From IMG/VR virus record IMGVR_UViG_3300012007_000010, positions 1-64,000 of that record: a stretch of 64,000 bases of DNA. The stretch is one strand, 5' to 3'. This DNA is from a virus (lineage: Duplodnaviria > Heunggongvirae > Uroviricota > Caudoviricetes). How positions within the stretch are numbered: the stretch's first letter is position 1; each line of letters opens with the position of its first letter. The notes under the pieces were generated by a model, which was not told where the DNA came from, did not search any database, and saw only the letters and a list, made by a program, of their open reading frames with translations. The translations under genes and the position numbers were made by a program. This document shows positions 13,457-46,691 of this stretch, one piece after another.

Positions 13457-16400
13457 TTATTCTTCATTATTCACTTTTTCTGGATCCTCCTTGGCCGCTG
13501 CCTGCACATAGCCCTCCTCATATTCCTTACCTACGGTGTAGGGATTGGCAGGGATGCCGCCGGGGCGGTTGCGGTAGAAGTAATGCACGAAGACGTGCTG
13601 AGAGAGTTCGCGGGGCACACGCTCGCCGGTCGATACCTCGCGGCGGTACTGGTTCTTGACGGTCTTTTCCACGGGCTTGCCACCAGCGTCGAGCACAGTG
13701 AGCCAGGCGCGGGCCTGACGGCCACCGTGACGTCGATACGAGGCGGTGGTCAGTACCACGTCAGGGTCCATCACGATGCCCATGCGGTTCAGGCAGGGCT
13801 TCAGGCTCTTGGCAATGCGCTTCTTCGCCTTCTCGATGGAGTCGAAGCAGACGCTCTCTCCCTCGCTGTCGAGCAGGCTGATAGCCATCTCCTGCGGCGC
13901 GATGGGCTGGCCGATGTGGGGGTTGTTCGGGATGTCCTCAAAGTACTGCACCAGCCAGTCGGTCAGTGCGCCGTCCTTGGTCATGGCGTAGAGCTCGCGG
14001 CGCAGGCTGCGTGTCTCGGTCGGCGGCAGGATGACCTCGCCGGGGTGCTGCAGATAGAACTGCGCACAGCATAGCAGGAGGTTGCGGGCCTCGTTGAGCA
14101 GGTGCATGGGCAGTCCGTTGGCTACCTCCTGCACACCATATTCCTCCTGAAACTCGTCGGTCGGTGTGAAGTCGAGCCAGCGTCCGTCGTCGGTGGCGGC
14201 ATGATAGTAGTCGGAGGTGAAGCAGGGATAGATACGCCCTTTCACTGAGCCGCCGGAGCGGTCGAAGGGTTTGTTGCTGGCGATGAATATCTTGGGCACG
14301 TCCTCGCCGCGCAGGGTGACGGGCTGCTTGTAGAGGGTCTTGATGACGATGGTGGTGCCGGTGTTGAACATATCCTCGAACTTGAAGTTGTCTGGCAACT
14401 CGTCAATGCAGACGAGCGAGTGGACTCCTGGCACCACGTTGCCCATCATCACCTCGATGGTGATGTTCTTCATCGACTTGCCTGCGATGTTGGCCGACGA
14501 CGGGCGCACCGTGGCCAACAGGTCGATGTCTGCGCTCTTGCCGTTGCGCCCGCTGGCTTTGTTCTCGTCGGTCACGCTGTAGTCGGTGATATGTACGGCC
14601 CGCTGCACGGCGCGGCTGCGGTGGCGCGTGAGGGCATAACCGAAGGCATGGACTTTGTTGATGAAGTGCATGTCCTGCATCTGGCGCTCGGTGGCCGTCA
14701 GCGTCTCGCCAAAACTTTGTTTCTCCCAGAAGATGCGCCCCTGGTTGTAGAGAAAGCGGAAGTGCATCGGCATCTGGTCGAGTGGCTTATCCATAATGAG
14801 CTGGTATTTCCACAGCTGCTCCCACTCCTTCCAACGGGTGTTCTCGGCTGCACGCATGGCGGGGGTCGAGCATTGGCGGCTGATGCCCTCGTGACGTTTC
14901 TTCTCGGCCTCGTATCTGGGGTTGACGATGATGCGCCACGGTTGCGGGATGGCCGTGAAGTCGCCCGGCATGATCAGCTCCTCGTTGGTCAGGTAGGGCA
15001 TCTGCTCGTAGCCTACGGTGACAATTTTTTCTTTGTTGACGAGCACGGCGGTGTTATCGAAAAAGAAGTAGTCGAAGTCATCGCCGTATGAGTGATCATT
15101 GATTGGAATCGACGGCATGGTGCTCAGTGTGCGCCCGTCGAGTCCCTTGCCGGTGAAGACGGCGTTCACGAGGTTGGCCTTGTATGGCGCGTCGGCCTCG
15201 CTGATGTGCGCGTCGAGCCAGTCGAGCATCGCCGTGCGGCTGACGCTCTCCAGCTGGTTGCCCGTGCGCCCGTTGTCGAGCAGGCGGTAGGTGTTCTTGT
15301 GCGTCAGCTGATAGAACATGCGCTGCCCCTGGTTGTTGGCATAGCAGCGTATGCCCTTCGCTTCCAAGAACTGCAGGAGGTTGGCCACGCTCAGCACGTA
15401 GCGCACGTTTGTCTCGCGGCTCTCACCGTCGCGGTTCTTCTTGGTGGTGGCTTTGTCTATCCAGAACTGCATCGTCAGGGCGTTGTCGAGCATGCGCATC
15501 AGTGCTGCACTTGGGTTGGCCTTGCGCAGGTCTGGGGCCAGCAACTTCTGAATCTGCGGAAAATGCGTCACGAAGTCGGTGACGTCCTTCAGGGGCTTCG
15601 GCAATTTCGGAGTACTCTGACTATTCTGAGAGCTCTGAGAACTCTGAACCACCTGCTCCATCTCCCTCGGCAGCCGAACCCAATGCACGTTGGCATTCTC
15701 AAGGGCAATGCTGCTGCTACTGCTGATGCCCGTCGCATCGAGGTCGTAGCAAACATATATATTACAGGCCACCGTCTGCATGCGGCAGAGCAGCATCTGC
15801 AGCCATTCTTCCACCACGCCTTCGTGTATGCCAGACGTCTCGCTGTTGAGCCACAGCACATGAGCATCGGTGGCAGCCCACATCTGCATCGCGTCGCGCG
15901 GACCGGAGCACAGCACCAGTCGCTTCATCTTGTAGTAGGTATTCTTCTCGCCGTTCTCCTCGCGCATCAGCTTCACGAGCGGGTGACGCGGGTCTTTCAT
16001 CACGTCCATCCACCAGGGGCGGTCGGCGTTGCCGTCGCCCGTCGTGTGCTCAGCGGTTTTTCCGCCGACGGTCATCTGCCTCAGTGCCGCTACCGCTACG
16101 CTGTCACCATACGCCTTCGTCGCCACACCCTCCTTTTTGTCCCAGTACCACTTCGTCCTGCCGCTGGCTTTCGGCTCATACTTCTTCACGCCCCAGTCGT
16201 AGGTAAAGACGAATATGGGGTAAGACGGACGGGCATGTACCTCCAGTGAGCAATGACCGCCCTGTTTGGCATCCACCGGCCCAGTGATGAACGTCGCCAC
16301 GGGGAACACGGAGAACTCGCGCTCCAGCACTTCGCCCCATTCCTGGGCGGTCTTGGTTCCTCCCCTGCCCCGCCAGTAGTTGCGGTCGAGCGAGCAGCGG

Positions 16401-16999
16401 TACAGCGGCAGGCCACTATCAGGGTCGAACTCCGTCACCATGTCGCCTATCTGAATCTCGGCACGGTCGGCATCGTCGGTCTCTTCCCCACCCTGCTTTA
16501 TTTTCTCCACGTCCCCCTGCTCGGCTTTGCGCCTTGCCAGCTCCACCTTGAATCCCAGCGCACGCAGGTGCTGTTCCGTCCAGGGTGTCAGGTCGAACTC
16601 GCACTCCTGAGGTTTGACAGCCTGTGTGTGCTGCTCCGGCGTGGTCGGTGCCACACCGCTTAGCTCTATGCCGTGGTCGTCAACAAGTCGCTGCAGCACT
16701 TCCCCCATTTGTTTGTTGGTCAGTGCCGTGTGGTCGTAGCCCAGTAGCGCGGCCTGCAGCGAGATAGCGCCGTAGCCGCGTCGCCCGCATTTACCGTAGC
16801 ATATCCAGCCCGAAGAGTCGGCACCGCCATCGACGCTCTGGTCCACCTTGAACGACGGTGTCCTGTCGTTGTGGTCGGGGAACGGACAGTAGTACGTCGC
16901 CTTACCCTTCTTCGGCAGATGGTAAGGCTCATATCCATTCTCGCGCATCACATCAACAAGCGAGATGTTCTTCAGTATCTTGATGTCTTCTTTTGTCAC
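13457..16999 (-). CDS. DNA primase-helicase (1180 aa)
   Basis: N-terminal CHC2-type zinc finger (YYCPFPDHNDRTPSFKVD...CYGKCG) as in DnaG/phage primases. C-terminal NTPase segment with a Walker-A-like GRNGKS and Walker B LVCIDELPD (SF3/D5-like). Confidence 0.8.
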   Translation of the reverse strand: MTKEDIKILKNISLVDVMRENGYEPYHLPKKGKATYYCPFPDHNDRTPSFKVDQSVDGGADSSGWICYGKCGRRGYGAISLQAALLGYDHTALTNKQMGEVLQRLVDDHGIELSGVAPTTPEQHTQAVKPQECEFDLTPWTEQHLRALGFKVELARRKAEQGDVEKIKQGGEETDDADRAEIQIGDMVTEFDPDSGLPLYRCSLDRNYWRGRGGTKTAQEWGEVLEREFSVFPVATFITGPVDAKQGGHCSLEVHARPSYPIFVFTYDWGVKKYEPKASGRTKWYWDKKEGVATKAYGDSVAVAALRQMTVGGKTAEHTTGDGNADRPWWMDVMKDPRHPLVKLMREENGEKNTYYKMKRLVLCSGPRDAMQMWAATDAHVLWLNSETSGIHEGVVEEWLQMLLCRMQTVACNIYVCYDLDATGISSSSSIALENANVHWVRLPREMEQVVQSSQSSQNSQSTPKLPKPLKDVTDFVTHFPQIQKLLAPDLRKANPSAALMRMLDNALTMQFWIDKATTKKNRDGESRETNVRYVLSVANLLQFLEAKGIRCYANNQGQRMFYQLTHKNTYRLLDNGRTGNQLESVSRTAMLDWLDAHISEADAPYKANLVNAVFTGKGLDGRTLSTMPSIPINDHSYGDDFDYFFFDNTAVLVNKEKIVTVGYEQMPYLTNEELIMPGDFTAIPQPWRIIVNPRYEAEKKRHEGISRQCSTPAMRAAENTRWKEWEQLWKYQLIMDKPLDQMPMHFRFLYNQGRIFWEKQSFGETLTATERQMQDMHFINKVHAFGYALTRHRSRAVQRAVHITDYSVTDENKASGRNGKSADIDLLATVRPSSANIAGKSMKNITIEVMMGNVVPGVHSLVCIDELPDNFKFEDMFNTGTTIVIKTLYKQPVTLRGEDVPKIFIASNKPFDRSGGSVKGRIYPCFTSDYYHAATDDGRWLDFTPTDEFQEEYGVQEVANGLPMHLLNEARNLLLCCAQFYLQHPGEVILPPTETRSLRRELYAMTKDGALTDWLVQYFEDIPNNPHIGQPIAPQEMAISLLDSEGESVCFDSIEKAKKRIAKSLKPCLNRMGIVMDPDVVLTTASYRRHGGRQARAWLTVLDAGGKPVEKTVKNQYRREVSTGERVPRELSQHVFVHYFYRNRPGGIPANPYTVGKEYEEGYVQAAAKEDPEKVNNEE

Positions 17000-17024
17000 G
17001 ACTTGTTAGTAGTATAACCGGTTT

Positions 17025-17537: not shown

Positions 17538-17792
17538 AAAGGTCTTTTAAAATCTCTTAATTTTAGGCTTAAATATCTTAAAAACGGGAGAAAAGCCTTA
17601 CCTTTGCGGATGGTCTAATTTCGCAAGGCGACGCACGGCTTCCTTCTGAAAGGTGCTTCATCGCGTCTGCAGGCTCTCCTTGTACCCGTTGGAGAGTTAA
17701 TTAACTAACTCACGGTGCAAAAGTAAGCAAAATGAAGCAAAGTTGTGCGTTATCGAGCAAAGTATTAACGTAATTTAATAATAAGGCTTAAT
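17538..17792. promoter_or_regulatory. divergent intergenic switch region with three AGCAAA(G) repeats
   Basis: A 255-bp non-coding stretch between the leftward early operon and the rightward HTH gene. It contains taAGCAAAatgaAGCAAAGttgtgcgttatcgAGCAAAGtatt. Confidence 0.4.
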
Positions 17793-18323
17793 ATGACAAC
17801 AACTGAGATTTTCCTGAAGATGGTGTATTGGCTTGTGGACAATACCGAGATGAAGAACCCTACCGCAGTGGCTCGCAAGGCTGGTATCAATGCAGCAAAC
17901 GTAACTAAGATTAAGACTGGCAAGAACAAGTCGGTGCAGTACGAAACAATGGTGAAGCTGAACAATGCGTTCGGAAATGTATTCAATCCCGAATGGATGC
18001 GCGGCAAGAGCGACGTGATGCTGATGGCAGACGTTGCTCCACTTTGCTCGGATAAGCAGAATAGTTTTCCTAACAGTGATTCAGTAACAATCACCGCCCT
18101 CCTCGCCGCCAAGGACGAGACCATCGCCTCACTGAAGCGCGAACTCGCCGCCAAGGATGATGTCATTGCCGCAAAGGACGGCATCATCAGCACGAAGAAC
18201 AAGCTAATTGACACCCTCCAACAACAGAACGATGACCTGCGAATGCAAGTCGCCTCGGGAAAGGGGTTCCGCTCTGGCCATTCCCCTTCGGCAGCTGCTG
18301 AACGCGAGCCCGCTCACCCATGA
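17793..18323 (+). CDS. XRE-family HTH transcriptional regulator, repressor-like (176 aa)
   Basis: N-terminal HTH (NPTAVARKAGINAANVTKIKTGKNKSVQYETMVKLNNAF) followed by a coiled-coil dimerisation-like region. Transcribed divergently from the early operon. Confidence 0.6.
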   Translation: MTTTEIFLKMVYWLVDNTEMKNPTAVARKAGINAANVTKIKTGKNKSVQYETMVKLNNAFGNVFNPEWMRGKSDVMLMADVAPLCSDKQNSFPNSDSVTITALLAAKDETIASLKRELAAKDDVIAAKDGIISTKNKLIDTLQQQNDDLRMQVASGKGFRSGHSPSAAAEREPAHP

Positions 18324-18466
18324 TTATTGGACACGTAAGGGACCGCTACCTCATGGCGGTCTTTTTCTTCTACGCAAAGAAGAAATCGCCTCGACTGCTT
18401 GGCGGTTCGCAATATTATGCTTATCTTTGCCACCGCTACGACAAACTTTTAAAAAAGCTACACACA

Positions 18467-19264
18467 ATGAAACAGGTATTATTCATGGTAGTGATTGCCG
18501 CAGGCATGCTGCTGGCAGGTTGCTCGAAAGACGAAAGTGACATGGGAACTATAAACAATACGGAACAGCAGACGCTGACAAAGGAGCAGATAGTAGGCGT
18601 GTGGCGTAGCGGCGACTACTGGGTGTCGTTCTCGGAGGATGGGTTTATGTGTGGTTATCTCAGCGAGAAGTGTATTTCAATGGGATATTACGATATTTCC
18701 GAGAAAGATATTGTCGTTACAGATAACTTTTGCGAGAACAACATGACAACATTCAATATTCTATCTGTTTCGGCTGACTCGTTTAGCTGCAATGTCAAGT
18801 GCAGTGAGATTGAAGTACAATCGCTAACTGTTGCAGAAGAGCTGGTCTACAAAGAAATTATTTCTAATAAAGAAGCTCAATTAGAAATGACATTTGTCAA
18901 AACGGCGGAAATTCCGACGATACAGGATAATTCAATTACAGGAAAGTCTTTTGAATATTATTGTAATTATACCTACATGTATGGCCAAAAGCCATCTGTT
19001 AGGTGTCTTAATAAGGGGAAAATTGATAAGAATGGTACAATTTTGAGAGAGATTACAAAACTCTCAGACGAGGGTGCTCTTCAAAGACCGTTTACGGTAC
19101 ACATGGAGGACCGCTATGTTTTACTATTACCATACATCTATTTTATAGAACTGCACAATGACGAGGACTATAATACAGATATCTCTTTCTTTGAATTAAA
19201 CACATACACAGTACAGAGAAGAAAAGTGACTTTTGTCTCTAATGAAAGTGTTTTGTTAGAATAG
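18467..19264 (+). CDS. lipoprotein, low-GC moron (265 aa from the internal Met)
   Basis: MKQVLFMVVIAAGMLLAGCSKDE is a signal peptide plus LAGC lipobox. The gene body is ~40% GC against ~58% in the flanks. The ORF-track start at 18320 lies upstream of the signal peptide. Confidence 0.65.
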   Translation: MKQVLFMVVIAAGMLLAGCSKDESDMGTINNTEQQTLTKEQIVGVWRSGDYWVSFSEDGFMCGYLSEKCISMGYYDISEKDIVVTDNFCENNMTTFNILSVSADSFSCNVKCSEIEVQSLTVAEELVYKEIISNKEAQLEMTFVKTAEIPTIQDNSITGKSFEYYCNYTYMYGQKPSVRCLNKGKIDKNGTILREITKLSDEGALQRPFTVHMEDRYVLLLPYIYFIELHNDEDYNTDISFFELNTYTVQRRKVTFVSNESVLLE

Positions 19265-19283
19265 AGAGTCAGAAGAATTATTC

Positions 19284-22200
19284 TTACTCTGCGACGGCCA
19301 TCTTAGCATTAACTTCCAATTCCCAAGCAACCCCCTCGTAATGATATCCGTCAGATTCATTCATATATGGTTTGCACACCAGCGAAAACATATAACCAGG
19401 TAATACCAGTCTGTCATTACCTGCAAAAACAACCACTCTGTACTCACTATTATTGTAAATAATCATACGATTCCCAATAAGAGATCTTGCTTCATCTAAT
19501 TGGTCCTCAGTGTATCCAGCACTTCTCGGAGTGAAACTTGGTAGTTCAAATATAACAGGACCTTGTAATCTTTCAAACTCTAAAAATGTTCCTGATTTTA
19601 TTATATCTATAACATTGGTAACTCCAGAATCAAGAGAGGTAATGGCATATTGATCAATATTATCTGCGGTTATAACCGTTTTTCTTTTTCTTAATACACC
19701 GCTAAATTCTCCGCTTGTGGCATGTACCTCACCGCGTATATACGCATCATTCTGATACGTCTTTCCCGTGAGCAGGTTGACGGCATAGTGAGGGATGAAG
19801 TTGTGGTGGTCGGCACCCCATTGGCTACCGTCCGACTGCGGCTTGCCTGCGTGATCCTCGTTGGGATAGGCAGGGTCGAACCAGAAGTAAGTGGGCTTTG
19901 TCTCGCTGCCGTTGGTATATGTGGCAGGGTCTGTGTACTTTCCTTCGTAAGCAGTGCCGTTGATGGTGCCATGCACGGAGATGAGCCAGTCGCCGCTGAC
20001 GACGGCTGCACCGAACTGCGCGAAATCGGCAAAGAGATAGCGGGCGCGGACGAGGTTGTACTGGCTCATGCCCAGCACCCAAACGGGTTTCCCGTCAATC
20101 ACGATGCCATCGGTGGGGCCGATGGCACTCTGTGCGGTGCCGTCTGGCCAGTTGCTCTCAGCATTGAGGTAGTAGATGTCGGTGGTATCGTTGGTGCCGC
20201 TCACCTCCACGGCCACCGTCTGACTGTCGTTGCTGGTATATTCTACGTCTTCACGATATTCGCCGGCCATGTAGCATAGCTTACCCATTGCGCCGACGGC
20301 TCCAGTCAGGCAGATGTAGGAGGTCTTGTCGTTCACGCCTGCTGCCGTGTAGTGCATGATGCGCTCCCAAACGTAGGGGTGTGTTGGCTTCGGGTCGGGA
20401 GCCGACTGGAGCCAGCGCACGCCGTTCACCTGATAGAGATCGCCGTCGGCATGGCTGGTGCGGCTTCGGCTCAGAGCATAGGCATGCTCGTTGTAGGGGG
20501 CATTGTCGCCCTTCAGGTCGTCCTCATGTGCCATGTAGGCCGTAGCCACGCGGCCTTCTTCCAACTTGGGCATGCAGATGCAGGCGATAGAATGATTGCC
20601 TGTGCCGCTGTCGAAGGCCTGGTAGAATTGCAGATTGAGTGTCTCGGTGCTTATGCTGTTGTTAGTCAAGAAAGTGATGGTATGCCGTTTTCCATCCCAG
20701 TCGCCTGTAATCAGAACGTCATTAAATCCGTCATTGCTTACCTGATAATCCTCGCCATCAAGTATCACCTTTAAATCGTTGCCGAAAATGTTGGTACGAG
20801 TTCCGTCGAATAGGTTAAGAAAAGAGACGACAAGCCGCCCTCCGCCATTCGCAAGAAAGGCGTTAAACGACAATGTGTACCAAGTGTTGGCTTTTAACTT
20901 ACCTATCAGATTCTGGGAAATACTCGTATCTGCCCCGTTGTCCTTAGCGTTCAGCCGGATTGACTTCCGCCCGTTGACAACTGTGTCGGAATTGGTGTCG
21001 ATTGTGACATAGGTATCGCTGTTACTGTACCATGCCTCCAACACGAAAGGCATGCCACGATCGAAGATGGTGCGCAACAGGATGTTCGTATTGACCTCCT
21101 GCGCATCGTCGCCCTTTGGACCGGTGTCGCCGTCCTTAACGACTGTTATCTGCGGTGCTTCCTTCAGGACGGCACCTTCGCCGTCAACGAGTCTCAGTGC
21201 GATGCCGTCGGCGGCTGTGCGTACAGATGCAGCCGGGATGCCATACGCCATTCTAAGCATACCGTCTTCCTCGACTCTTAACCTCTCGCAGCTCCTCCAT
21301 GCTTTCCCGTCAATGCTGAATTTGACTTCATGCGCCGGGCTTCCGTCTAAATGCGCAATAAACAATATTTCTGTCCGCTTAGCCCCCGTGATAGAGAAAG
21401 CCCTGACTTCGATGTCGCCCGTCTCAATCGTCCCGTCGGCCTTGGCGTTGATGACACTTACACTTGTAACAATGTCATAAGTGACGGCATCCTCGGCATA
21501 GCGGTTGTGAATGACGGGTGCGTGGAATGTGCCCCAGCGGTGGTTCTCGTCGTCGTAGTCGCGCCAAGACTCCCACTCCACGTCGCCCGGCTTCGACACG
21601 CCCGTAGGGTCGTCGCTCCAGCCGGAGGGCACAAAGTCGTCAACAAGCAGGCAGTTGTCCACGCCGTCGGTCTGTCCGCTGACAGCCGTTCCGCCAGCCG
21701 TACCGGTGGTGGCATCGTAGCCTGTGTTGCTGTTTAGGCGGTAGATCCATTCGCGTATCTTCGAGTCCTCTCCATCGCGGACGAAGGCGATGGTGGCGCG
21801 AGAGAGTTCCTTCTCTGCTACAGTCTTGCCGTCGGCAGTGATGCGGCGCATGAGCCTCACGTTCACGCTCTGTTGTAAGGCAAAAGCCGTCGTAGCGATG
21901 TTGGCCGTGGCAGCTTCCTGCGATGAATCGCTGAAGGTGAGCTTCGTCCACTGAGTTGAGCCGACGGGAGCATATTCAGCCTCGAGCGAGGCATTGGCTA
22001 TCTGCCCCAGCGTCATGTCGAACACCTCGCCGCGCTGGTCGGTGCCCCGTATGCCCACGTTTACGCCGCCGTCAGGGCTGTAGTTCTGCGTCTGTGGATC
22101 ATAGCTGACGATAGTCTCTGACAGCGACAACTCATATTTCTCAATGGTTTCAGCCAGAATGGTGATAATGGATGATTTAAGTATAAGGTATGGAGGAAGA

Positions 22201-23063
22201 TCAGAACCTTCTTCATACTCAGGATTGGCTTCCATTGCCATGATAGTAAACGTGGCGGCTACGGCTCCGTTGAAATCGTCTTCGTCGCGTTTGTGTTTCA
22301 GGATAATTTCTCCCGACGTACTGAATGTATTTGCACGGATGTCCCCTTCGAGCCAGTTGCGGTTCTCGTGCGGATCATTGTCTGTCTTACGGCTAATCTC
22401 CCAGTGGTCAAAGCGTTGTATGTCGGTTCCAGTCCAACCCTCTGTAATCGTGGCGGTGAGCACAAGCTGCTGATCCCAGTAGACATAAGGGCTCGTACCA
22501 ACATCCTCATCGTTGATGGTGCAGCCAAGGTCAATTCGCAGCGGCAGCTCATCCGGACGGAGTGACCATTCGTCGTTGAACTGGTCGGTACCCAGTATGC
22601 CGGTGTCGAGCGTGACAGTGCGCTGGTTGTTGGCATCGGGTAGTGACACGTCGCCAAGGCGGACGTAAAAGTAATTAATGTTCGTGACCCCCACGGGATT
22701 CCCGAACTGGTCTAAGTAAAGAGTACTATACCCGTCAACCGAAACACTTGAGTAAGCATCTGCCCAGTTGTGGGCTTCATCCTTTTTCACAAACACCAAG
22801 TACCCGTTAGTTCGGTCTTCCCTTGATAGCCGGGCATAGATGGTGTAGGGCTTGGTCCAGTCGGCCAGGCGGCGGTTGCGCCCGGTGAGCGTCCATTCCT
22901 GATATTCGCCATCAGTCGTCTTGTCTATTCCAGCACGGGGCGAATAGACCTTGATTTTTGCATTCCGGCTGATAGTGACGGCCAGGTCACTCGATGTGCC
23001 GTTGCAGTTGGGCTCAATGCTGATGGCCGATGGGGCTATGTAGTGGACAGGGGATGTACGCAT
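19284..23063 (-). CDS. large tail fibre / host-specificity protein (~1260 aa; ORF extends to 23129)
   Basis: A 1281-aa ORF with beta-rich, Gly/Thr/Asp-rich composition and a GDTGPKGDD collagen-like tripeptide run. The last ~140 codons (19284-~19700) are low-GC. The second Met (MRTSPVHY, 23061-23063) is preferred as the start because the late-promoter motif and the shared AAAAGGCGATAT context lie just upstream of it. Confidence 0.65.
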   Translation of the reverse strand: MRTSPVHYIAPSAISIEPNCNGTSSDLAVTISRNAKIKVYSPRAGIDKTTDGEYQEWTLTGRNRRLADWTKPYTIYARLSREDRTNGYLVFVKKDEAHNWADAYSSVSVDGYSTLYLDQFGNPVGVTNINYFYVRLGDVSLPDANNQRTVTLDTGILGTDQFNDEWSLRPDELPLRIDLGCTINDEDVGTSPYVYWDQQLVLTATITEGWTGTDIQRFDHWEISRKTDNDPHENRNWLEGDIRANTFSTSGEIILKHKRDEDDFNGAVAATFTIMAMEANPEYEEGSDLPPYLILKSSIITILAETIEKYELSLSETIVSYDPQTQNYSPDGGVNVGIRGTDQRGEVFDMTLGQIANASLEAEYAPVGSTQWTKLTFSDSSQEAATANIATTAFALQQSVNVRLMRRITADGKTVAEKELSRATIAFVRDGEDSKIREWIYRLNSNTGYDATTGTAGGTAVSGQTDGVDNCLLVDDFVPSGWSDDPTGVSKPGDVEWESWRDYDDENHRWGTFHAPVIHNRYAEDAVTYDIVTSVSVINAKADGTIETGDIEVRAFSITGAKRTEILFIAHLDGSPAHEVKFSIDGKAWRSCERLRVEEDGMLRMAYGIPAASVRTAADGIALRLVDGEGAVLKEAPQITVVKDGDTGPKGDDAQEVNTNILLRTIFDRGMPFVLEAWYSNSDTYVTIDTNSDTVVNGRKSIRLNAKDNGADTSISQNLIGKLKANTWYTLSFNAFLANGGGRLVVSFLNLFDGTRTNIFGNDLKVILDGEDYQVSNDGFNDVLITGDWDGKRHTITFLTNNSISTETLNLQFYQAFDSGTGNHSIACICMPKLEEGRVATAYMAHEDDLKGDNAPYNEHAYALSRSRTSHADGDLYQVNGVRWLQSAPDPKPTHPYVWERIMHYTAAGVNDKTSYICLTGAVGAMGKLCYMAGEYREDVEYTSNDSQTVAVEVSGTNDTTDIYYLNAESNWPDGTAQSAIGPTDGIVIDGKPVWVLGMSQYNLVRARYLFADFAQFGAAVVSGDWLISVHGTINGTAYEGKYTDPATYTNGSETKPTYFWFDPAYPNEDHAGKPQSDGSQWGADHHNFIPHYAVNLLTGKTYQNDAYIRGEVHATSGEFSGVLRKRKTVITADNIDQYAITSLDSGVTNVIDIIKSGTFLEFERLQGPVIFELPSFTPRSAGYTEDQLDEARSLIGNRMIIYNNSEYRVVVFAGNDRLVLPGYMFSLVCKPYMNESDGYHYEGVAWELEVNAKMAVAE

Positions 23064-23090
23064 GATTCTGATATCGCCTTTTTTTTGCAC

Positions 23091-23126
23091 ATTATATATA
23101 TTATACGGCACTGAGGTCAAGGGCAA
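23091..23126 (-). promoter_or_regulatory. late-promoter motif copy (TTGCCCTTGACC-N18-TATAAT) for the 1281-aa gene
   Basis: Minus-strand reading TTGCCCTTGACC tcagtgccgtataatata TATAAT. It is arranged as a palindrome with the plus-strand copy. Confidence 0.5.
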
Positions 23127-23138
23127 CACTCCTGCTTA

Positions 23139-23173
23139 TTGCCCTTGATGTTCGCTTTCTGTTCAGCGATATT
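23139..23173 (+). promoter_or_regulatory. late-promoter motif copy (TTGCCCTTGAT-N18-GATATT) for the 1163-aa gene
   Basis: ttgcccttgat gttcgctttctgttcagc gatatt, ~40 bp upstream of the ATG at 23213. Confidence 0.5.
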
Positions 23174-23212: not shown

Positions 23213-26200
23213 ATGGGACATTTAGCACTGGAAGTATTCGATTTGCCAACTAATGAGAATCCGAAGCCGACGGGCAGTAAGTATGCTGTGCTGTCAGAGA
23301 ACGCGAGTATCACCATCACCGACACGTCGGAGATATTCGGAAGTGGTGATGTTTGGTCATTTCCGTTCAAGCTTAACGTCAATGCCAATGCGCACATCTT
23401 CGGCACGGCGGGCGAGACGCACGGCTCGCGGCTGCACGAGCAGATAGATAAGCGCCGCGCCCGGCTATGGGTGGATGGCCTGCCGCTCTATCTCGGTTAT
23501 CTGAAACTCGGCGACGAAGCGGATGTGGACGCGAGTGGCGACGTGGATGTCAGCTTAGAGGCGGGAAGAAAAACTTTCGACGAGATGATAGAAGGGGCGA
23601 GTGCAAGAGATGTGAGCGTCGGCGACGTGGTGATAGGCGTGGCTCTGAACAGGAAACGCGTCATAACAATTAGTGACATTAACGTGAAATTTCGGCTCAA
23701 GAACTTACCTATAGACGATGTTAACGTAAGAAACGCCGTTGAAAGTTATATTTTCGAGCTCTCGGCAGGGGATTACGAATATCATTCCGCTCTTTCGCAT
23801 AGATGGCCAAAATTGGTGCTGTCAAAAGGCGAACTGACAGACTACACATCTGGAACAGGGGTTCCCGTTTCTTTTAATAAGACCAACATACAAAATCCTT
23901 ATGATGATAGTCACCCGTTTTGCAATGTCAACGTATGCTATCAGCGTAAACGGCAGAATGCGGATCTTAGTGAGACTACATTGCGCGACTATGTTATGCG
24001 ACTTGCCTATGGAAATGACACAACTACTGGTGGCGATGGACAAACACGTTTCAATAATGCACCAAATTTCTATCTTCTCTATTGGTTGAAGCGACTGTTC
24101 ATGGACCTTCATATTCAAGTCGTAGAAAATCAGATGCTCAACGTAGAAGACTTCCGACATGTATTTCTTGCCAATCTTGGCTGTTTTTACGAAGAGATGG
24201 ATAATGACAACGATACGACGGACAACTACTCGCAAGATAGTGCCGAATGGAAGAGGTATGGGAAATATTCCTTCCCTGATAGTTTTATTCTTGACCCAGA
24301 CAAGATATTTGCAGATGAACCAGGAAAAATCTATGTAAACAGCATTGATATAGAATCCGATATGTTTACTGAACATTTCCACGGAACTTATCATGGACAA
24401 ACGGGAGAGGTCACAGAAGTAACACAAACAATAAGGACAGAACCTATTAATGGATATCTTGCCTACGCAACAGGCGAGAATTATCCAAATGTGGAAATCT
24501 CGGAGATCATCGAGGCAACGGAGTCCGCATTTGGAGTAAGATTTCTTTTCAACAATGATTTCTCAGAAGTGCGCATAGTCCTGATAAGGAATATCTTAAC
24601 AAACAGAGCTGTAAAGGATTTGGACTGCGACATTATCGAAGAAACAAAAATAGAGAATAATATACGTGGGTTTAAGATGACTTACGGCCAAGGGAAAAGC
24701 AATGTTTCTTATTTTTACAAAGGGTTCGATGATATGCTCCCGAAGAAAAAAGTAATCTGGAAAGACAAAAGTGACAAACATGACTACTCGAATTGGAATC
24801 TAACTGCAAACTACAATGATGTAATAAACAATGTAACCGCTTTCGATAAGACATGCTATGTGACGCCGGATAACGGAAACGCATACGGCATAATGATTGA
24901 TGAAAAAGAAGATGTCTTTTTCCCCGCTGTCTTTGAATTTGCAGGATTCATGGATGCCTGCGATGGAGACTGTACTGAAGAAGGCACTACCATAGACACA
25001 AAGACGATCAATGCAACGCCTCTTATACCTAATAATATTAATGGTGATTATGCGGTTTTCTTTAATGGAGAGATGAAAGCACCTGGTGGGAAACATGAAG
25101 TAGCGGCCATGATTCCAATTAAATCTGTTGAATTAATACATGGATATAAACGTGTTTATAAAGGAACTGAACCCAGTGGCTGGGTTTCATTATGGGATGG
25201 TTACTATTTAGACTTGAAAAACGTAGAGATATATGTTAAAGAGGGATATTCATTGTCCCTCATGGATAACTATAGTTTCACAGGCAACGAAGGTACTCCA
25301 TTCGACAATGCCGACTTAGGGCTAAGCTTTGGGGTTATGCGTAGAGACGGAAGGAACTCTTCAATCATAAGCTATGAAGATCTGATCGAGGGAGAGGGAA
25401 ACTTTAACTGGGAGGTATCTCCGGACGGTGGTGCTATCATTCATCCCGATACCTGCGACAGTTATGGCAATGAATGGTATTATCACCCTGAGGAATCAGC
25501 AACAACTCTCACCGTCACAAGTCGAGAGGATGCTGTAAGGCTGTTAGAAAAAATGTTCCCAAGACGCAATGCACAATTTTATACGCCAGAACGAGGATAT
25601 ATAACCGGCTGTAATACACATGAATTATATGACTATGATGCTAATAGGGCATTCTATGCGATTACAGCCTGGTATCAATATTATCCCGTTACAGATCAAG
25701 ATATGGCAGATTGGTTATGGGAGATCACAATACTAAATAAAGATACACCGTTCTTTGCAATAAGAAGCATTGAAGCAGCCTATGAAGAAGATCGGAAACG
25801 GTGTAACATACTATTGGATTGTGGCTATGATGTTGATATTTCCCCAGGAAGAATAAAAACCATAGAAGATCTATTTAGAAAAGCCTATGGTCCTGATTCA
25901 CAAGAAGAGCATCCCATCATCATCGACAACGGTATAAGTGCGAGGTACGGGCGATTCTCACTCAAGCTACGGGCAGAGAAGCTGAACCCGTATTTCGACC
26001 CTTCTTTGCCAGATATCATTTCCACTAAAGATGCTGCAGGAAGAGCGATGAAAAGCATTTTCATAACAGCAAACACAGATTTGCTTTCTCGGCCAAGGAT
26101 CAGTGGCGCTGAGATGAAAGCTGCTGGATGGAACGATTTTGCCGATGGTGACTATGCCACGCTGTACAGTACGAGCTATTCGGTTTATTATGATACAGGT

Positions 26201-26704
26201 AAGGTGCATGAAATACTTTTTACCCCTATTCGCGAGGATGGAACGGTGCTTTCGCCAAGTCAACTCCAGAATTACGCTGTCGGATTTAATGGGCTGTCGG
26301 CTCATTCTATAGCTGCCAATGACACACAACATCTGGTACTCGACATAGACACTAATGACTCACGGGCGGAAATTCTGCATCAGCTTCAGGCAATCTATTA
26401 TGCCGCAGATGGAGAAATAGTTCCTACAGTAGATATAGGTAACACACGATATCTTAGTATCACTAATCCGAATCTGCGCAATCGTGGACTTTGCGATCAG
26501 TTCTACAAAGAATACTCATACTTGATACGTAATGGCCGTATTTGTAGAAAAAAGGTACGAATGGAGCTGGCTGTTCTGCTTTCCATAGACAAGACAAATC
26601 TTTATTGCGTCGGTGATATAACTGGATATATCCGCAAGATACAGTACACAGTAAGCAACAATACAGGACTTAATGATGTGACATTGGATATTATATATAT
26701 TTAA
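23213..26704 (+). CDS. large tail fibre-like protein (1163 aa) with a low-GC C-terminal ~1000 aa
   Basis: Long ORF. GC drops sharply from ~55% to ~40% at ~23650. The embedded antisense ORFs are AT-frame artefacts. Confidence 0.65.
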   Translation: MGHLALEVFDLPTNENPKPTGSKYAVLSENASITITDTSEIFGSGDVWSFPFKLNVNANAHIFGTAGETHGSRLHEQIDKRRARLWVDGLPLYLGYLKLGDEADVDASGDVDVSLEAGRKTFDEMIEGASARDVSVGDVVIGVALNRKRVITISDINVKFRLKNLPIDDVNVRNAVESYIFELSAGDYEYHSALSHRWPKLVLSKGELTDYTSGTGVPVSFNKTNIQNPYDDSHPFCNVNVCYQRKRQNADLSETTLRDYVMRLAYGNDTTTGGDGQTRFNNAPNFYLLYWLKRLFMDLHIQVVENQMLNVEDFRHVFLANLGCFYEEMDNDNDTTDNYSQDSAEWKRYGKYSFPDSFILDPDKIFADEPGKIYVNSIDIESDMFTEHFHGTYHGQTGEVTEVTQTIRTEPINGYLAYATGENYPNVEISEIIEATESAFGVRFLFNNDFSEVRIVLIRNILTNRAVKDLDCDIIEETKIENNIRGFKMTYGQGKSNVSYFYKGFDDMLPKKKVIWKDKSDKHDYSNWNLTANYNDVINNVTAFDKTCYVTPDNGNAYGIMIDEKEDVFFPAVFEFAGFMDACDGDCTEEGTTIDTKTINATPLIPNNINGDYAVFFNGEMKAPGGKHEVAAMIPIKSVELIHGYKRVYKGTEPSGWVSLWDGYYLDLKNVEIYVKEGYSLSLMDNYSFTGNEGTPFDNADLGLSFGVMRRDGRNSSIISYEDLIEGEGNFNWEVSPDGGAIIHPDTCDSYGNEWYYHPEESATTLTVTSREDAVRLLEKMFPRRNAQFYTPERGYITGCNTHELYDYDANRAFYAITAWYQYYPVTDQDMADWLWEITILNKDTPFFAIRSIEAAYEEDRKRCNILLDCGYDVDISPGRIKTIEDLFRKAYGPDSQEEHPIIIDNGISARYGRFSLKLRAEKLNPYFDPSLPDIISTKDAAGRAMKSIFITANTDLLSRPRISGAEMKAAGWNDFADGDYATLYSTSYSVYYDTGKVHEILFTPIREDGTVLSPSQLQNYAVGFNGLSAHSIAANDTQHLVLDIDTNDSRAEILHQLQAIYYAADGEIVPTVDIGNTRYLSITNPNLRNRGLCDQFYKEYSYLIRNGRICRKKVRMELAVLLSIDKTNLYCVGDITGYIRKIQYTVSNNTGLNDVTLDIIYI

Positions 26705-27882: not shown

Positions 27883-27918
27883 CCTGCCCTTGATTTCGGA
27901 TTCCTATTTACCGATATT
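27883..27918 (+). promoter_or_regulatory. late-promoter motif copy (CCTGCCCTTGATT-N-GATATT)
   Basis: cctgcccttgat ttcggattcctatttacc gatatt, upstream of the 27967 gene. Confidence 0.5.
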
Positions 27919-30997: not shown

Positions 30998-32332
30998 ATG
31001 GCTATCAAGAAAGTAAACAACCTCTCTGAGTATGCTGCCAAGCCAAAGAGCAGCACCGAGACGACGCTTACGGGCGTGACCGACGGCAACGAGCTGCGCG
31101 TTGACGGCATCAACGTGCGAGTCGGCACTCCCGCCCTGGGTGATGCAGTCTATGAAGACGCCAATGGCTACTACTTTTACAAGGGTGGTGACCGCCTGAA
31201 CCACACTCTCCTCACTGCCGCCGGACTGACTGCCGTCGGGCCGGTGTGCGGATTCTACGGCGGCAAGGCCGTGGTAATGAACGGTACCGAGGCCGACCGC
31301 AAGTATGCCGACGTGCTGCAATACACCATCACCGCCATCACCAGCACCACGCCAACCATCAATCTCCGCTTCCGAGACACGTCGAAGAGCGGACAGGCGC
31401 AGTATGACAGCAACATCCCCGTCACACCTACGCTCACCTCTACCGACATCAACGCCACCACCGCCGCCGAAATCAGCGCCGCCGTGGCTGCCAAGGCCGT
31501 CGAGGTGGGCGACACGCAGGCATGGTGGGCCTATCTGGCCGATGCCGACGGCAATAAGGTGGACGAAGACGGTACGTGCATCATCATCCAGTGCGACGTG
31601 TGGAGCAACTACAATCAGTACAACGTCAGCGGCTCCGGCCTTACCGTCAAATTCACCACGTGGGGCGACATGCCCGCCAACAGCTGGTATAAGAAACTGA
31701 ACGGCAAGACCACGAGCTATCGCGGTCTGTTGAATATCGCCAGTGGCGCAACCTACTTCGGCACCGAAGGACGTGTGCCGACGTCCGACATCGCAGTGGG
31801 CAGCGAGGCCGGTGATACCAGCCCCGTGAAGCGCGAGGAGTTCAACACCTCGGCATTCTGCACCGCCATCCGCAATCATTACAAAACCTACGAAGCCTAC
31901 CTGCATGGCGAGTTTGACATCCCCTACCCGCAGAAGTGGGGCTGCTTCGGCCTGCCGCACGCAAAGGAACTGACGCTGAAGTATGCGTTGAAGACCGCTC
32001 CCACCAAGAACGGCGGCGAGAAGTACAAGTTCCCAGCCATGTACTATGCCTACAACACCTCCTACGGCATCGACGGCCTGGACTTCGGCGACTGGTATCT
32101 GCAGGGTGTTCACGAGGGCGTTCAGTTCATGGACGACGCCAACATAGCCGTCATCAACCGCACGCTGTCCAAGATGGGTAAGTCTACCATTAGTACCGGC
32201 ACGCACCGTTGGTTTGCTCAGAGGGACAACGCGGACGGCGCTTGGATCTTCAGCGGCTACAGCGGCACCTTGGGCTACAACCACGTGAACCGCACGTTTC
32301 GTGCGAGGGCCCTTGCGCTATTGAATTTTTAA
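30998..32332 (+). CDS. DGR target protein: receptor-binding tail fibre with C-terminal variable repeat (444 aa)
   Basis: C-terminus ...TGTHRWFAQRDNADGAWIFSGYSGTLGYNHVNRTFRARALA is the VR counterpart of the TR 750 bp downstream. Confidence 0.8.
   Translation: MAIKKVNNLSEYAAKPKSSTETTLTGVTDGNELRVDGINVRVGTPALGDAVYEDANGYYFYKGGDRLNHTLLTAAGLTAVGPVCGFYGGKAVVMNGTEADRKYADVLQYTITAITSTTPTINLRFRDTSKSGQAQYDSNIPVTPTLTSTDINATTAAEISAAVAAKAVEVGDTQAWWAYLADADGNKVDEDGTCIIIQCDVWSNYNQYNVSGSGLTVKFTTWGDMPANSWYKKLNGKTTSYRGLLNIASGATYFGTEGRVPTSDIAVGSEAGDTSPVKREEFNTSAFCTAIRNHYKTYEAYLHGEFDIPYPQKWGCFGLPHAKELTLKYALKTAPTKNGGEKYKFPAMYYAYNTSYGIDGLDFGDWYLQGVHEGVQFMDDANIAVINRTLSKMGKSTISTGTHRWFAQRDNADGAWIFSGYSGTLGYNHVNRTFRARALALLNF
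32195..32317 (+). repeat. DGR variable repeat (VR), 123 bp
   Basis: Aligns base-for-base with 33079..33201. All but one of ~22 mismatches fall where the TR has A. Confidence 0.8.
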
Positions 32333-32343
32333 TCTTAATCGCT

Positions 32344-32401
32344 CCGCGCCCATCCCGTAAGGGTGTGGCGCGGGCGTCATAACGCCGCCCCTTGGGGCGG
32401 C
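32344..32401 (+). terminator. two GC-rich hairpins immediately 3' of VR
   Basis: CCGCGCCcatCCC gtaa GGGtgtGGCGCGG, then the perfect palindrome GCCGCCCC tt GGGGCGGC. Confidence 0.45.
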
Positions 32402-32498
32402 TCGCAATCAGTGAAACAATATACCGACTACGACACCTATCTGCAGGACGCCTACGAACAGCAGGCCGACAGGTGGCGCGGAATAACAAGAACGCAAA

Positions 32499-32894
32499 AT
32501 GAATCACGGAACAAAGCCGAGACCAGGCGGCAATAAAGCCAAAAACGACAAGTCGAGCATACTGGTAGATGCCAAGATGCTGCTCAGGATTTACAATCCC
32601 ATCTTCCAGCACATGCCGAAGATAGAGCGCATCGACGGCCTCGGAGCCGACATGCGGCGTGCCATCCTCGACATCATCAGCCACTTCTCAATAGCCTACG
32701 AGTGCGAAGAGGTGCGGCAGCAGGAGATACGGCAGATGATAGGCAGCTACGGCAAGGCGATGGCCGTGTTTGATTTGCTGCGCGACCTTGGCGTGGTACC
32801 CGACACTGAACTGTATCTGATGGCGGAAAGGATGGACCGCATCGAGTGCGGCATCATGAAATGGCGCAATTCACTAAGAAGCTGTAAGTCTTAA
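32499..32894 (+). CDS. avd: accessory variability determinant (Avd)-like protein (131 aa)
   Basis: Small basic helical protein between VR and TR. YNPIFQHMPKIERIDG resembles the Avd YPIAQSIPRKHG segment. Position is canonical (target-avd-TR-RT). Confidence 0.65.
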   Translation: MNHGTKPRPGGNKAKNDKSSILVDAKMLLRIYNPIFQHMPKIERIDGLGADMRRAILDIISHFSIAYECEEVRQQEIRQMIGSYGKAMAVFDLLRDLGVVPDTELYLMAERMDRIECGIMKWRNSLRSCKS

Positions 32895-33078
32895 TTCCCG
32901 TCAGGAGCGGCGTCAGGTCCCGGCTTACGATGCTACGGGTTAGCATGCACACCGAAAGAGGTCGCCGTCAGCTACGGAATAAGATAATAGGGGACGCGGC
33001 TATCATTCCTGTCATTTGCGGCAGGCGTCGCGGCGGCTACGGCAGCCCGGCGATAGCAACATCGTAATGTCGTCCGAC

Positions 33079-46677: not shown

Positions 46678-46691
46678 CAAGGGCAGGAGGA

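Follow-up and report, generated by a model that had tools for sequence, protein, structure and literature searches.

The locus described here raises the question of why a stretch of strongly reduced GC content in a phage genome holds both a lipoprotein gene and the end of a tail fibre gene, and whether the two parts are related in function. The window (W), which is the whole stretch of 64,000 nucleotides analysed, was compared with more than 40 related loci (designated L001 and so on). The source phage is large and uncultured, and its host is probably a Prevotella-like bacterium of the gut or rumen. The phage family comprises uncultured phages of roughly 110-145 kb with a GC content of ~55-58%, which are probably linked to Prevotella or other Bacteroidales. 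Bacteroidota are the dominant Gram-negative phylum of the gut and rumen. The search of the GenBank phage collection with a 7-kb DNA query (distant mode) and with protein queries gave no match, and a scan of IMG/VR with the lipoprotein-family seed found no relative. In the genome collection, the same seed matched one Prevotella MAG. Among the sequences of the PDB, neither the fibre and the lipoprotein profile nor the 1163-aa ORF and the target of the diversity-generating retroelement (DGR) gave a meaningful match.

Composition and anatomy of the low-GC block

The preliminary description reported a fall in GC content from ~58% to ~40% across positions 18467-~19700, and the sliding-window calculation confirmed it. 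The GC content of 18467-19700 is 0.378, compared with 0.601 at 16000-17000 and 0.567 at 19800-20800. Windows of 300 nt taken across W have a mean GC content of 0.555 (sd 0.065); the minimum of 0.347 falls within the block, where seven consecutive windows stay below 0.42. The trough sets in near 18600-18700, slightly inside the start coordinate given earlier. The codon composition demonstrates the same step, since GC3 of the fibre gene falls at codon 1143, from 0.66 in codons 1-1142 to 0.27 in codons 1143-1281 (GC 0.55 and 0.37, respectively). The part of the 1281-aa fibre assigned to the block as its last ~140 codons thus comprises 139 codons. The GC content of the lipoprotein gene is 0.39 overall; the first 70 codons have 0.49, and those that follow have 0.35. 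Low GC content is also seen elsewhere in W, between genes at 17550-18000 and in most of the 1163-aa ORF (23850-26700). The coordinates of the features are listed in Table 1.

Table 1. Features of the locus, with positions in the window
Feature	Position	Strand	Remarks
Cro/CI-type HTH regulator with coiled-coil tail	17793..18323	+	Pfam HTH_26, E=1.1e-4; PHROG repressor families
Terminator-like hairpin (11-bp stem) and U-tract	18338..18364	+	Just past the HTH stop codon
Putative Bacteroidota-type promoter of the lipoprotein gene	18398..18429	+	Positional conservation
Lipoprotein gene	18467..19264	+	265 aa, ATG at 18467; N-terminus MKQVLFMVVIAAGMLLAG-C-SKDES
Signal peptide and lipobox LLAG-C	18467-18523	+	Within the lipoprotein gene
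Predicted surface-export signal S-K-D-E-S	18524-18538	+	Directly after the lipobox Cys
Exchangeable cassette core	18712..19647		Not homologous at the DNA level to L001, the closest syntenic relative; matches the GC trough
Fibre gene	19284..23129	-	Maximal ORF 1281 aa; probable start M23 (ATG 23063), giving 1259 aa, from alignment to relatives
Distal fibre tip domain	19284..19703	-	Codons 1143-1281 and stop; globular alpha/beta
Joint motif G-E-V-H-A-T-S-G-E-F-S-G	19698..19733	-	Fibre residues 1133-1144

The lipoprotein gene and its upstream region

The gene with the lipobox (LLAGCSKDE), described earlier as convergent to the fibre end, is indeed present, and its stop codon is 19 nt away from the stop codon of the fibre gene. 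The mature lipoprotein has 247 residues. The export signal is followed by a disordered tether and two predicted lipocalin-like beta-barrels (~aa 38-145 and aa 160-265), and the predicted fold agrees with the eight-stranded antiparallel barrel of this type. The optimum for surface export of Bacteroidota lipoproteins is C-X-K-(D/E)2-X (PMC5080379); the C-S-K-D-E-S of the W protein matches it exactly, with K-(D/E)2 at +3 to +5. Most of the 33 aligned family members likewise have C-S-K-(D/E) or a near variant after the lipobox Cys. It seems that the lipoprotein is located at the cell surface, as suggested by this signal. The dN/dS of 0.31 is consistent with a real gene under purifying selection.

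The searches of Pfam, PHROGs, NCBIfam and PADLOC recognised no family for the lipoprotein, the BFVD fold search found no viral structure at E<=1e-3, and in sequence, profile and fold searches the lipoprotein resembled none of the known exclusion proteins. The lipocalin-like lipoproteins of Bacteroidota (BT_0869, BT_0846, BACUNI_01346, the potempins and the T6SS immunity protein BtaiB) are single-barrel cellular proteins, whereas the W protein is a tandem one and is encoded by a phage. An o-spanin is a small periplasm-facing lipoprotein whose gene accompanies that of an i-spanin among the lysis genes. This assignment was rejected for the W lipoprotein, which is a 247-aa two-barrel protein with a surface-export signal, neighbours the HTH regulator and the fibre, and has no lysis genes identified nearby.

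The HTH regulator gene is located upstream of the lipoprotein gene and is co-directional with it. Its product shares 61-68% identity with the counterparts in L001 and L003, and it belongs to the conserved backbone, not to the cassette. Between the two genes, a 56-nt segment (18330-18385) that spans the 11-bp stem and a second adjacent hairpin folds at -21 kcal/mol (z=-4.6 vs shuffles). The hairpin sequence recurs in L001, L008, L010 and L018, and would insulate the lipoprotein gene against read-through. The putative promoter includes a -33-like element CTTG (TTTG in most relatives), a 20-nt spacer and the -7 box TATCTTTG at 18422-18429; the Bacteroidota -7 consensus is TAnnTTTG (PMC4747536). 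The conserved leader AAAAGCTACACA lies between the -7 box and the ATG of the lipoprotein gene. The block TTTGGCGGTTCGCAATATTATGCTTAyCTTTG was found in 14 of 17 loci, always equally far from the ATG and irrespective of the orientation of the module. The evidence for the promoter is this positional conservation, because the -7 motif by itself is not enriched in W. A sigma-70 promoter scan of W was uninformative, as such a scan is not suited to Bacteroidota.

Morons are accessory genes that are autonomously transcribed and inserted between phage genes. The lipoprotein gene is similar to them in having its own predicted promoter, independent of the neighbouring operons, a preceding hairpin with a U-tract, a deviant GC content (0.35-0.39 vs 0.57-0.60) and a patchy distribution among close relatives, being cleanly absent from L026 and L027. 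The earlier assignment of the gene as a moron is supported by the conserved promoter, the upstream hairpin and the presence/absence polymorphism. No terminator downstream of the W gene was detected by the consensus scan, which also missed the upstream hairpin, and there is one weak, non-significant hairpin between the convergent stops. Unlike ordinary morons, the W gene encodes a protein whose sequence co-varies with a segment of the neighbouring structural gene.

The tail fibre and its distal domain

The N-terminal ~520 aa of the fibre are conserved, the shaft that follows is mosaic, and the tip is exchangeable. Most of the 339 fibre homologues have only the N-terminal 41% in common with it, and some of these relatives end in Peptidase_S74 (PF13884) or CBM_4_9 domains. 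The W fibre has no Pfam match, and hence no C-terminal Peptidase_S74 domain; weak PHROG tail and NCBIfam spike-fibre matches were found at aa 700-900. The tip is presumed to be the receptor-binding end. As revealed by the fold search, the tip resembles tailspike and Ig-like insertion domains, including docking domains of branched tailspikes. Given the docking-domain folds among the closest, the tip may not itself be the receptor-binding surface.

The identity of the W and L001 fibres is 89% before the joint GEVHATSGEFxG and 37% after it. The claim that the distal fibre domain has been swapped is thus upheld, with the exchange placed exactly at this conserved joint. The joint motif was seen in most loci and in the fibres of unrelated phages, and, judging from the drop in identity, it is where recombination delimits the cassette on the right-hand side. 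The dN/dS is 0.9-1.6 in the tip and 0.22-0.24 in the rest of the fibre, which points to diversifying or relaxed selection on the tip. The tip was also considered as a DGR target and rejected. The DGR of W pairs a TR at 33079-33207 with a VR at 32195-32323 in a 444-aa ORF, and no repeat is present in the tip or the lipoprotein gene.

Exchange of the block between phages

In blastn comparisons with L001, L018, L028, L027 and L003, the homology ends at 18539-18712 and returns at 19648-19743; the widest limits of the cassette, found against relatives other than L001, are 18539-19742. The synonymous divergence between W and L026 amounts to 0.06 in the tip and to 0.45 elsewhere in the fibre. As the preliminary description proposed, the block is a horizontally exchanged cassette, judging from these sharp breakpoints and the low tip divergence. 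A single recent acquisition in W is not supported, since a low GC content is present in all 16 lipoprotein-linked cassettes of the family, which are mutually divergent.

The low GC content may also be explained without a foreign origin, by fast-evolving and weakly constrained sequence drifting in place to an AT-rich mutational equilibrium. The uniformly low GC content of the 16 divergent cassettes would fit such a drift, as would the high dN/dS of the tip and the similarly low GC content of a variable neighbour, the 1163-aa ORF. However, the GC steps match the sharp homology breakpoints, and the tip divergence between W and L026, which is 7-fold below that of the flanks, indicates a recent transfer. 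Moreover, the lipoprotein-free tip classes within this family vary just as much, but their GC content is 0.48-0.56. Phages with related class-1 tips, in which the whole backbone has 43-48% GC, would be a plausible donor pool. An origin of the low GC content by drift in place is therefore considered improbable. A host origin of the low GC content was rejected as well, because the sole bacterial flank available has 53.5% GC, far above the cassette.

Co-inheritance of the tip and the lipoprotein

W, L001 and L018 have shafts that are 81-89% identical and carry three different tips (15-34% identity) and three different C-terminal parts of the lipoprotein (26-39%). L001 and L003 have similar tips (78-86%) and lipoproteins (81-84%) on shafts that are only 25-35% identical. 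This is the occurrence of the same tip-plus-lipoprotein combination in different backbones that the preliminary description had suggested looking for. The Mantel test over 15 loci demonstrated a correlation of the C-terminal part of the lipoprotein with the tip (r=0.90, p=1e-4), compared with r=0.34 and r=0.28 for the pre-tip. In all 25 lipoprotein-seeded loci, a large convergent ORF ends -39 to +76 nt from the lipoprotein stop, although in L005, L007 and L009 this ORF is present only as a contig-cut fragment. The fibre-seeded loci L028 and L033 encode other lipoproteins, one Big_2-like and one with a single barrel, in the same slot and with the same signal peptide. Two gene orders of the module exist among the relatives and are treated as an evolutionary rearrangement. 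An invertible site-specific segment was rejected as their source, as W has no inverted repeats on the two sides of the module.

In L026, 987 bp with the lipoprotein gene are replaced by ~62 nt, and the tip is still 84% identical to that of W; therefore, the lipoprotein is dispensable for fibre assembly. The preliminary description had named the absence of the gene from the relatives that share the fibre tip as an argument against its own reading, and for the tip allele of W this is formally the case, by the single relative L026. In the lower-GC phages L044-L047, related class-1 tips occur without a lipoprotein gene convergent to them, as do four tip classes within the family. Thus, the pairing of tip and lipoprotein is facultative.

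Possible function of the cassette

The analysis demonstrates the composition and gene anatomy of the locus, the limits of the cassette, the joint inheritance of its parts, the dispensability of the lipoprotein and the signal motifs, and we infer the surface location of the lipoprotein, receptor binding and exclusion. In view of these features and of the coliphage systems discussed below, it is moderately likely that the lipoprotein acts in superinfection exclusion by masking the receptor of the matching tip, and that the block represents a single allele of an exchangeable cassette for host recognition. Such a cassette would consist of the last ~140 fibre residues, the presumed receptor-binding tip, and most of the convergent lipoprotein gene. 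Recombination at two conserved flanks would move both halves jointly between phages, one flank being formed by the lipoprotein promoter, the signal peptide and the first ~60 mature residues, and the other by the joint GEVHATSGEFxG. The host RNA polymerase would transcribe the lipoprotein gene from its own Bacteroidota-type promoter, and the product would be lipidated and then flipped to the cell surface by means of the C-S-K-D-E export signal. The variable surfaces of the barrels would occupy or cover the outer-membrane receptor recognised by the cognate tip, and infected (or lysogenic) cells, vesicles and debris would no longer adsorb phages with that tip. The outcome would be superinfection exclusion and protection of the progeny, a functional analogue of T5 Llp/pb5 and of the RBP/Cor-type loci of small coliphages. 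Host surface lipoproteins change phage susceptibility in Bacteroides (10.1101/521070).

The surface lipoprotein might bind the cognate tip and not the receptor, neutralising incoming phages at the surface or on vesicles as an immunity protein for one's own tip, comparable to lipoproteins directed at an incoming virion component. However, a surface decoy would also capture the progeny of the phage itself upon lysis if the binding were not reversible or the protein not shed, and this possibility is rather improbable. It is also unlikely, although slightly less so, that the lipoprotein is a hitch-hiking moron unrelated to the fibre, serving for example in ligand or nutrient capture or as a host fitness factor, and situated in a recombination hot spot. 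The co-variation could stem from physical linkage alone in that case, as the segments are so close to each other that any exchange between the conserved flanks carries both. The loss of the gene without loss of the tip in L026, the related tips found without a lipoprotein and the predicted fold, which is that of a generic ligand-binding barrel, agree with such a passenger. On the other hand, the association persists at deep divergence, where the tips have roughly 20% identity or below, and is present in both gene orders. The convergent placement at the 3' end of the fibre gene is invariant, differently folded lipoproteins, each with the shared signal peptide, have been recruited to precisely this slot, and the low-GC signature is restricted to lipoprotein-bearing tips (-0.18 vs -0.05). 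Phages T4, Mu and P2 encode tip-specific chaperones beside their fibre genes, and tip-specific co-variation combined with adjacency is the pattern of a chaperone; the resemblance of the tip to docking domains of branched tailspikes would also suit a virion component docking on the tip. However, an assembly factor, chaperone or virion component of this kind is highly improbable, since the canonical lipoprotein signal peptide and the export signal would direct the protein out of the cytoplasm, where fibres are assembled, the gene is transcribed convergently from its own predicted promoter, and L026 keeps the tip without it.

A more far-reaching reading of the locus, which is speculative and rather doubtful, is a plug-in system of specificity and immunity. 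The constant promoter, signal peptide and export signal would act as a delivery socket, and the swapped, mutually unrelated mature domains (tandem lipocalin, single barrel or Big_2-like) would travel with the matching tip. Each domain would act at the surface on its cognate partner; it would either bind the tip directly or mimic the lid lipoproteins characteristic of Bacteroidota and cap a SusC-like transporter. If true, this would be a surface-acting exclusion mechanism without a described counterpart, and it would give a starting point, at the sequence level, for matching phage tips to receptors in uncultured Bacteroidota. If receptor masking by the lipoprotein holds, tip/lipoprotein pairs would be usable to fish for receptors of uncultured Prevotella phages, and these cassettes would provide a first case in which a phage protein blocks infection by way of the surface-lipoprotein export route of Bacteroidota. 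The compositional trough would then be a clear case of a mark of a mobile host-range module, and not of a generic foreign gene. The rules of tip/lipoprotein pairing could aid host-range prediction and the design of exclusion-escaping phages.

Comparison with known systems

Superinfection-exclusion proteins matched to the RBP are documented in a few coliphage groups, and those of the Llp/Cor type contain an intramolecular disulphide. Nothing comparable was found in the literature on Bacteroidota phages. In phage T5, the gene of Llp adjoins that of pb5, and Llp blocks FhuA by binding its periplasmic face; both Llp and Cor are small lipoproteins (PMC9586334). The W locus shares with T5 llp/oad (pb5) the position of the lipoprotein gene directly beside a segment that determines receptor binding and the proposed logic of masking one's own receptor. 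Thus, the T5 Llp-like arrangement put forward earlier holds for the adjacency, found at W and in the 25 loci, but not for homology or, as predicted from the sequence, for the orientation towards the periplasm. The W lipoprotein is unrelated to Llp and Cor in sequence, size and fold, and carries a predicted signal for export to the surface. In addition, no separate RBP is involved, and the lipoprotein is paired only with the terminal domain of a long fibre.

Small coliphages of the Drexlerviridae, Dhillonvirus and Queuovirinae possess allelic RBP loci with cognate exclusion proteins (Cor-type lipoproteins) that are inherited together (PMC8594841). The W locus is similar to these in its exchangeable alleles, fixed slot, dip of similarity between close relatives and joint inheritance. 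It differs in the host phylum, the protein families and the strong low-GC signature, and also in that the cassette cuts both genes, including the fibre tip and the C-terminal two-thirds of the lipoprotein. The exchange of fibre tips in P2, Mu, λ and T-even phages also involves a mosaic fibre, a conserved joint and an adjacent small gene moving with the tip. Unlike the downstream chaperone of those phages, the companion in W is an exported lipoprotein, encoded convergently and dispensable for the tip.

Lipoprotein Gene and Its Expression Signals

The gene of the 265-aa lipoprotein stops 19 nt short of the stop codon of the convergent tail fibre gene. Its canonical lipobox is followed by C-S-K-D-E-S, which fits C-X-K-(D/E)2-X, the experimentally defined optimum for cell-surface export of Bacteroidetes lipoproteins (PMC5080379). 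The gene would be insulated from the upstream Cro/CI-type regulator (HTH) gene by a hairpin, which together with a second, adjacent hairpin makes up a 56-nt stretch (18330-18385) with a folding energy of -21 kcal/mol (z = -4.6). On the 3' side of the hairpin lies the block TTTGGCGGTTCGCAATATTATGCTTAyCTTTG, kept in 14 of 17 loci. Its predicted promoter consists of a -33-like TTTG and a TAnnTTTG that lies 20 nt downstream and agrees with the Bacteroides -7 consensus (PMC4747536); the leader AAAAGCTACACA separates it from the lipoprotein ATG. Two gene orders were found among relatives, with the HTH gene before the lipoprotein gene or, the module being flipped, before the fibre gene, and the promoter block travels with the lipoprotein gene in both.

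The lipoprotein had no match among curated families, defence-system models or viral structures. Its profile, compared with 1.84 billion representatives, recovered only 158 clusters, and several clusters and database proteins match just the first ~60 profile positions. The dN/dS (0.31) points to a functional gene. As supposed in the preliminary description, the gene has the properties of a moron, except that no terminator was found downstream.

The AT-rich region (about 0.40 GC) that separates the HTH gene (+) from a 63-aa gene (-) has a TAnnTTTG box on each strand and is probably a regulatory switch region.

Coordinates of features in the window and, where named, in related loci
Feature	Position	Strand	Remarks
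Divergent intergenic region	17538-17792
TAnnTTTG box	17599-17606	+
TAnnTTTG box	17718-17725	-
HTH gene	17793-18323	+
Hairpin	18338-18364		11-bp stem and U-tract, after HTH stop codon
Lipoprotein ORF	18467 (ATG) to 19264 (stop codon end)	+	N-terminus MKQVLFMVVIAAGMLLAG-C-SKDES...
Fibre ORF	19284-23129	-	convergent
Homology of the window (W) with L028	lost 18539, resumes 19743
Homology of W with L018	lost 18647, resumes 19743
Homology of W with L001	lost 18712, resumes 19648
1163-aa ORF	23213-26704	+	divergent from fibre gene
Diversity-generating retroelement (DGR)	30998-34573		complete
444-aa ORF	30998-32332		variable repeat at 3' end
DGR variable repeat	32195-32323
DGR template repeat	33079-33207
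Reverse transcriptase	33260-34573		part of DGR
4187-aa ORF	46692-59255	-	weak tape-measure PHROG matches, E 7e-7 to 1e-4
CCTGCCCTTGAT...GCGATATT motif	23138-23173; 27883-27918; 40063-40098	+
Same motif	46652-46687	-
Tandem paralogues	4789-5265; 5338-5748	-	phrog_98 / phrog_8684, function unknown
Inverted partial copy of paralogue sequence	62693-62769		near 62.7 kb
L028 lipoprotein	3599-4252 (L028)	-	217 aa, Big_2-like
L033 lipoprotein	5573-6088 (L033)	-	171 aa, single lipocalin-like barrel

Low-GC Block as an Exchangeable Cassette

The GC drop reported earlier for 18467-19700 is real: direct computation gives 0.378, against 0.601 and 0.567 on the two sides, and a trough of 0.35-0.44 stands out in the sliding-window profile at about 18450-19800 between flanks of 0.57-0.61. 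In 300-nt windows, the whole window has a mean GC of 0.555 (sd 0.065), and its lowest value, 0.347, falls inside this block. The contents of the block were also described correctly, namely the lipobox lipoprotein ORF and the last codons (1143-1281) of the convergent fibre gene, where GC3 is 0.27 versus 0.66 in codons 1-1142. The trough does not start at 18467, since the first 70 codons of the lipoprotein gene have a GC of 0.49 and the onset lies ~150-250 nt inside the gene. The fibre ORF has 1281 codons at its maximum, as stated, but the protein likely starts at M23 (ATG at 23063) and has 1259 aa. Other low-GC stretches lie close by, at 17550-18000 and 23850-26700.

Related loci were collected using as seeds the lipoprotein (L001-L025), the fibre (L026), the fibre joint motif (L027-L043) and the tip (L044-L047). 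In 25 of 25 lipoprotein-seeded loci, a large ORF ends convergently, -39 to +76 nt from the lipoprotein stop; it encodes 900-2700 aa where complete and is a contig-cut fragment only in L005, L007 and L009. Similarity among relatives changes exactly at the joint G-E-V-H-A-T-S-G-E-F-x-G. The window and L001 share 89% identity in the pre-tip part, 37% in the tip and 49% in the lipoprotein; between L001 and L003 the values are 35%, 86% and 81%, so that the tip and lipoprotein do recur together on a different backbone. Across 15 non-redundant loci, lipoprotein C-terminal identity follows tip identity closely (Mantel r = 0.90, p = 1e-4) and that of the adjacent shaft weakly (r = 0.34); tip and shaft identities correlate with r = 0.28.

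The GC trough coincides with the non-homologous core delimited by DNA comparison with L028, L018 and L001. In the comparison with L026, dS is 0.06 in the tip versus 0.45-0.46 over the remainder of the fibre gene, indicating that exchange of the tip is far more recent than the divergence of its surroundings. Mosaicism, homology breakpoints and dS thus support the horizontal acquisition proposed in the preliminary description.

Compared with window 17793-23129, L003, L014, L016, L017, L024 and L025 carry the entire lipoprotein-plus-fibre module in reversed orientation with respect to the HTH/primase block. No inverted repeats flanking the module were found in the window, and the flipped order therefore looks more like the product of evolutionary rearrangement than like a switch.

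Fibre and Its Tip

About 340 homologues of the fibre were found, alike chiefly over the N-terminal ~520 aa and variable at the end, where some carry Peptidase_S74 or CBM_4_9 domains. The joint is conserved and followed by a terminal domain of ~125-177 aa; fibres of unrelated phages with 31-46% GC contain it as well. These sequence features support a tail-fibre module. The dN/dS of the tip (0.9-1.6, from small counts, versus 0.22-0.24 elsewhere in the gene) is consistent with diversifying or relaxed selection.

Proposed Function of the Cassette

The best-supported reading, held with moderate confidence, is that a receptor-binding tip and a surface lipoprotein masking the same receptor are combined in the cassette. 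The lipoprotein would be exposed on the cell surface and would bind the receptor recognised by its cognate tip; masking could then lead to superinfection exclusion and shield progeny from adsorption to debris or vesicles. The cassette structure, co-inheritance, promoter and insulating hairpin, dispensability, lipobox, export motif and predicted fold come from the sequence comparisons and predictions, and the steps from surface exposure through receptor binding to exclusion are inferred. In its proposed working, the locus would resemble that of T5, where Llp adjoins pb5 and blocks FhuA (PMC9586334), and those of small coliphages (Drexlerviridae), where allelic RBP loci carry cognate exclusion proteins (PMC8594841). 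In Bacteroides, surface lipoproteins of the host change susceptibility to phages (10.1101/521070, PMC12548429). The Llp-like arrangement suggested earlier is retained as a probable functional analogy, but the lipoprotein falls outside the Llp/Cor family, differing from it in sequence, size, fold and predicted topology. The literature searched contained no account of a cassette of tip and lipoprotein from Bacteroidota phages, which is not proof that none exists.

The tip domain may touch the receptor or may dock another protein; that the lipoprotein binds the tip directly seems rather improbable. A role as an assembly factor is hardly credible in view of L026, whose tip is 84% identical to that of the window and equally low in GC, while window positions 18313-19299, exactly the leader and lipoprotein gene, are replaced by ~62 nt. 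The lipoprotein is thus dispensable for this tip type, which argues against a chaperone and fits an accessory gene. The expectation that the lipoprotein would accompany the window's own tip allele failed, since the sole relative with this allele, L026, has no such gene.

It is unlikely, though somewhat less so than direct binding, that the lipoprotein is a moron without functional relation to the fibre that hitch-hikes at a hot spot of recombination. Not every locus shows the pairing, which is facultative (L026, L027, L030, L032, L034, L044-L047). Against mere linkage, L028 and L033, from the same phage family, have lipoproteins in the same convergent position, whose signal peptide and export signal are those of the window's protein and whose mature parts are unrelated or reduced; each goes with a tip class of its own and shows the same GC trough. 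Recruitment of different lipoproteins to one slot argues that the pairing is probably functional.

At about 7900-10900 in L021-L023, the lipoprotein gene and its promoter, with a 500-570-aa C-terminal fibre fragment including the tip, adjoin housekeeping genes of a bacterium (rpsD, rpoA and a Fic gene); the contigs have 53.5% GC and end soon after. These copies are either a prophage edge or a retained remnant; if the latter, the host may have kept the lipoprotein.

Origin of the Low GC Content

Lipoprotein-linked tips (n = 16) have a GC of 0.33-0.43, on average 0.18 below their own shaft, and lipoprotein-free tip classes of the same phage family (n = 4) 0.48-0.56, on average 0.05 below it (Mann-Whitney p = 2e-4, the loci not being independent). 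Low GC is a property of the cassette class and not of this phage alone. Class-1 tips that are 33-38% identical to that of the window occur on fibres of phages with a 43-48% GC backbone from the same IMG/VR metagenome sample series, with no convergent lipoprotein; these phages are a plausible low-GC donor pool. The host chromosome was ruled out as the source by the 53.5% GC of the single bacterial flank on hand (L021). In-place AT drift, which would need no transfer, is doubtful beside the evidence for horizontal acquisition.

Phage, Host and Other Features

No relative was found among GenBank phages. The window is phage-like by gene content, with an S49 head-maturation-protease homologue, a primase-like 1180-aa protein and an exonuclease. 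The 4187-aa ORF carries internal repeats (families D6, D12-D14) and, if it is the tape measure, implies an exceptionally long tail. A protein identical to the fibre occurs in the database on a 129,669-bp contig, and relatives lie on contigs of about 110-145 kb. The lipoprotein family was found in animal-gut and rumen-type metagenomes, with two members from Prevotella MAGs; together with the Bacteroidota-specific signals, this suggests that the host is probably Prevotella or a related Bacteroidales member.

The DGR repeats are 85% identical, with nearly all differences at template adenines (AAC codons); given the variable repeat in the 444-aa ORF, the phage diversifies a second surface protein by another mechanism. 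The 1163-aa ORF, the largest low-GC stretch of the window (0.37-0.41 over ~3 kb), matched neither a family nor a PDB entry. Relatives conserve its N- and C-terminal ends but differ in the middle, with 56% identity to the 883-aa homologue of L001 and little similarity to L018. The ORF may encode a second exchangeable protein for interaction with the host.

The repeated motif CCTGCCCTTGAT...GCGATATT, whose copies at 23138, 27883 and 46652 lie upstream of genes, looks like a phage-specific promoter or operator; its reverse complement ATCAAGGGCAG occurs upstream of the lipoprotein promoter in flipped-order relatives. The tandem paralogues are 88% identical over 59 nt in their 5' coding parts and 92% over 61 nt upstream.
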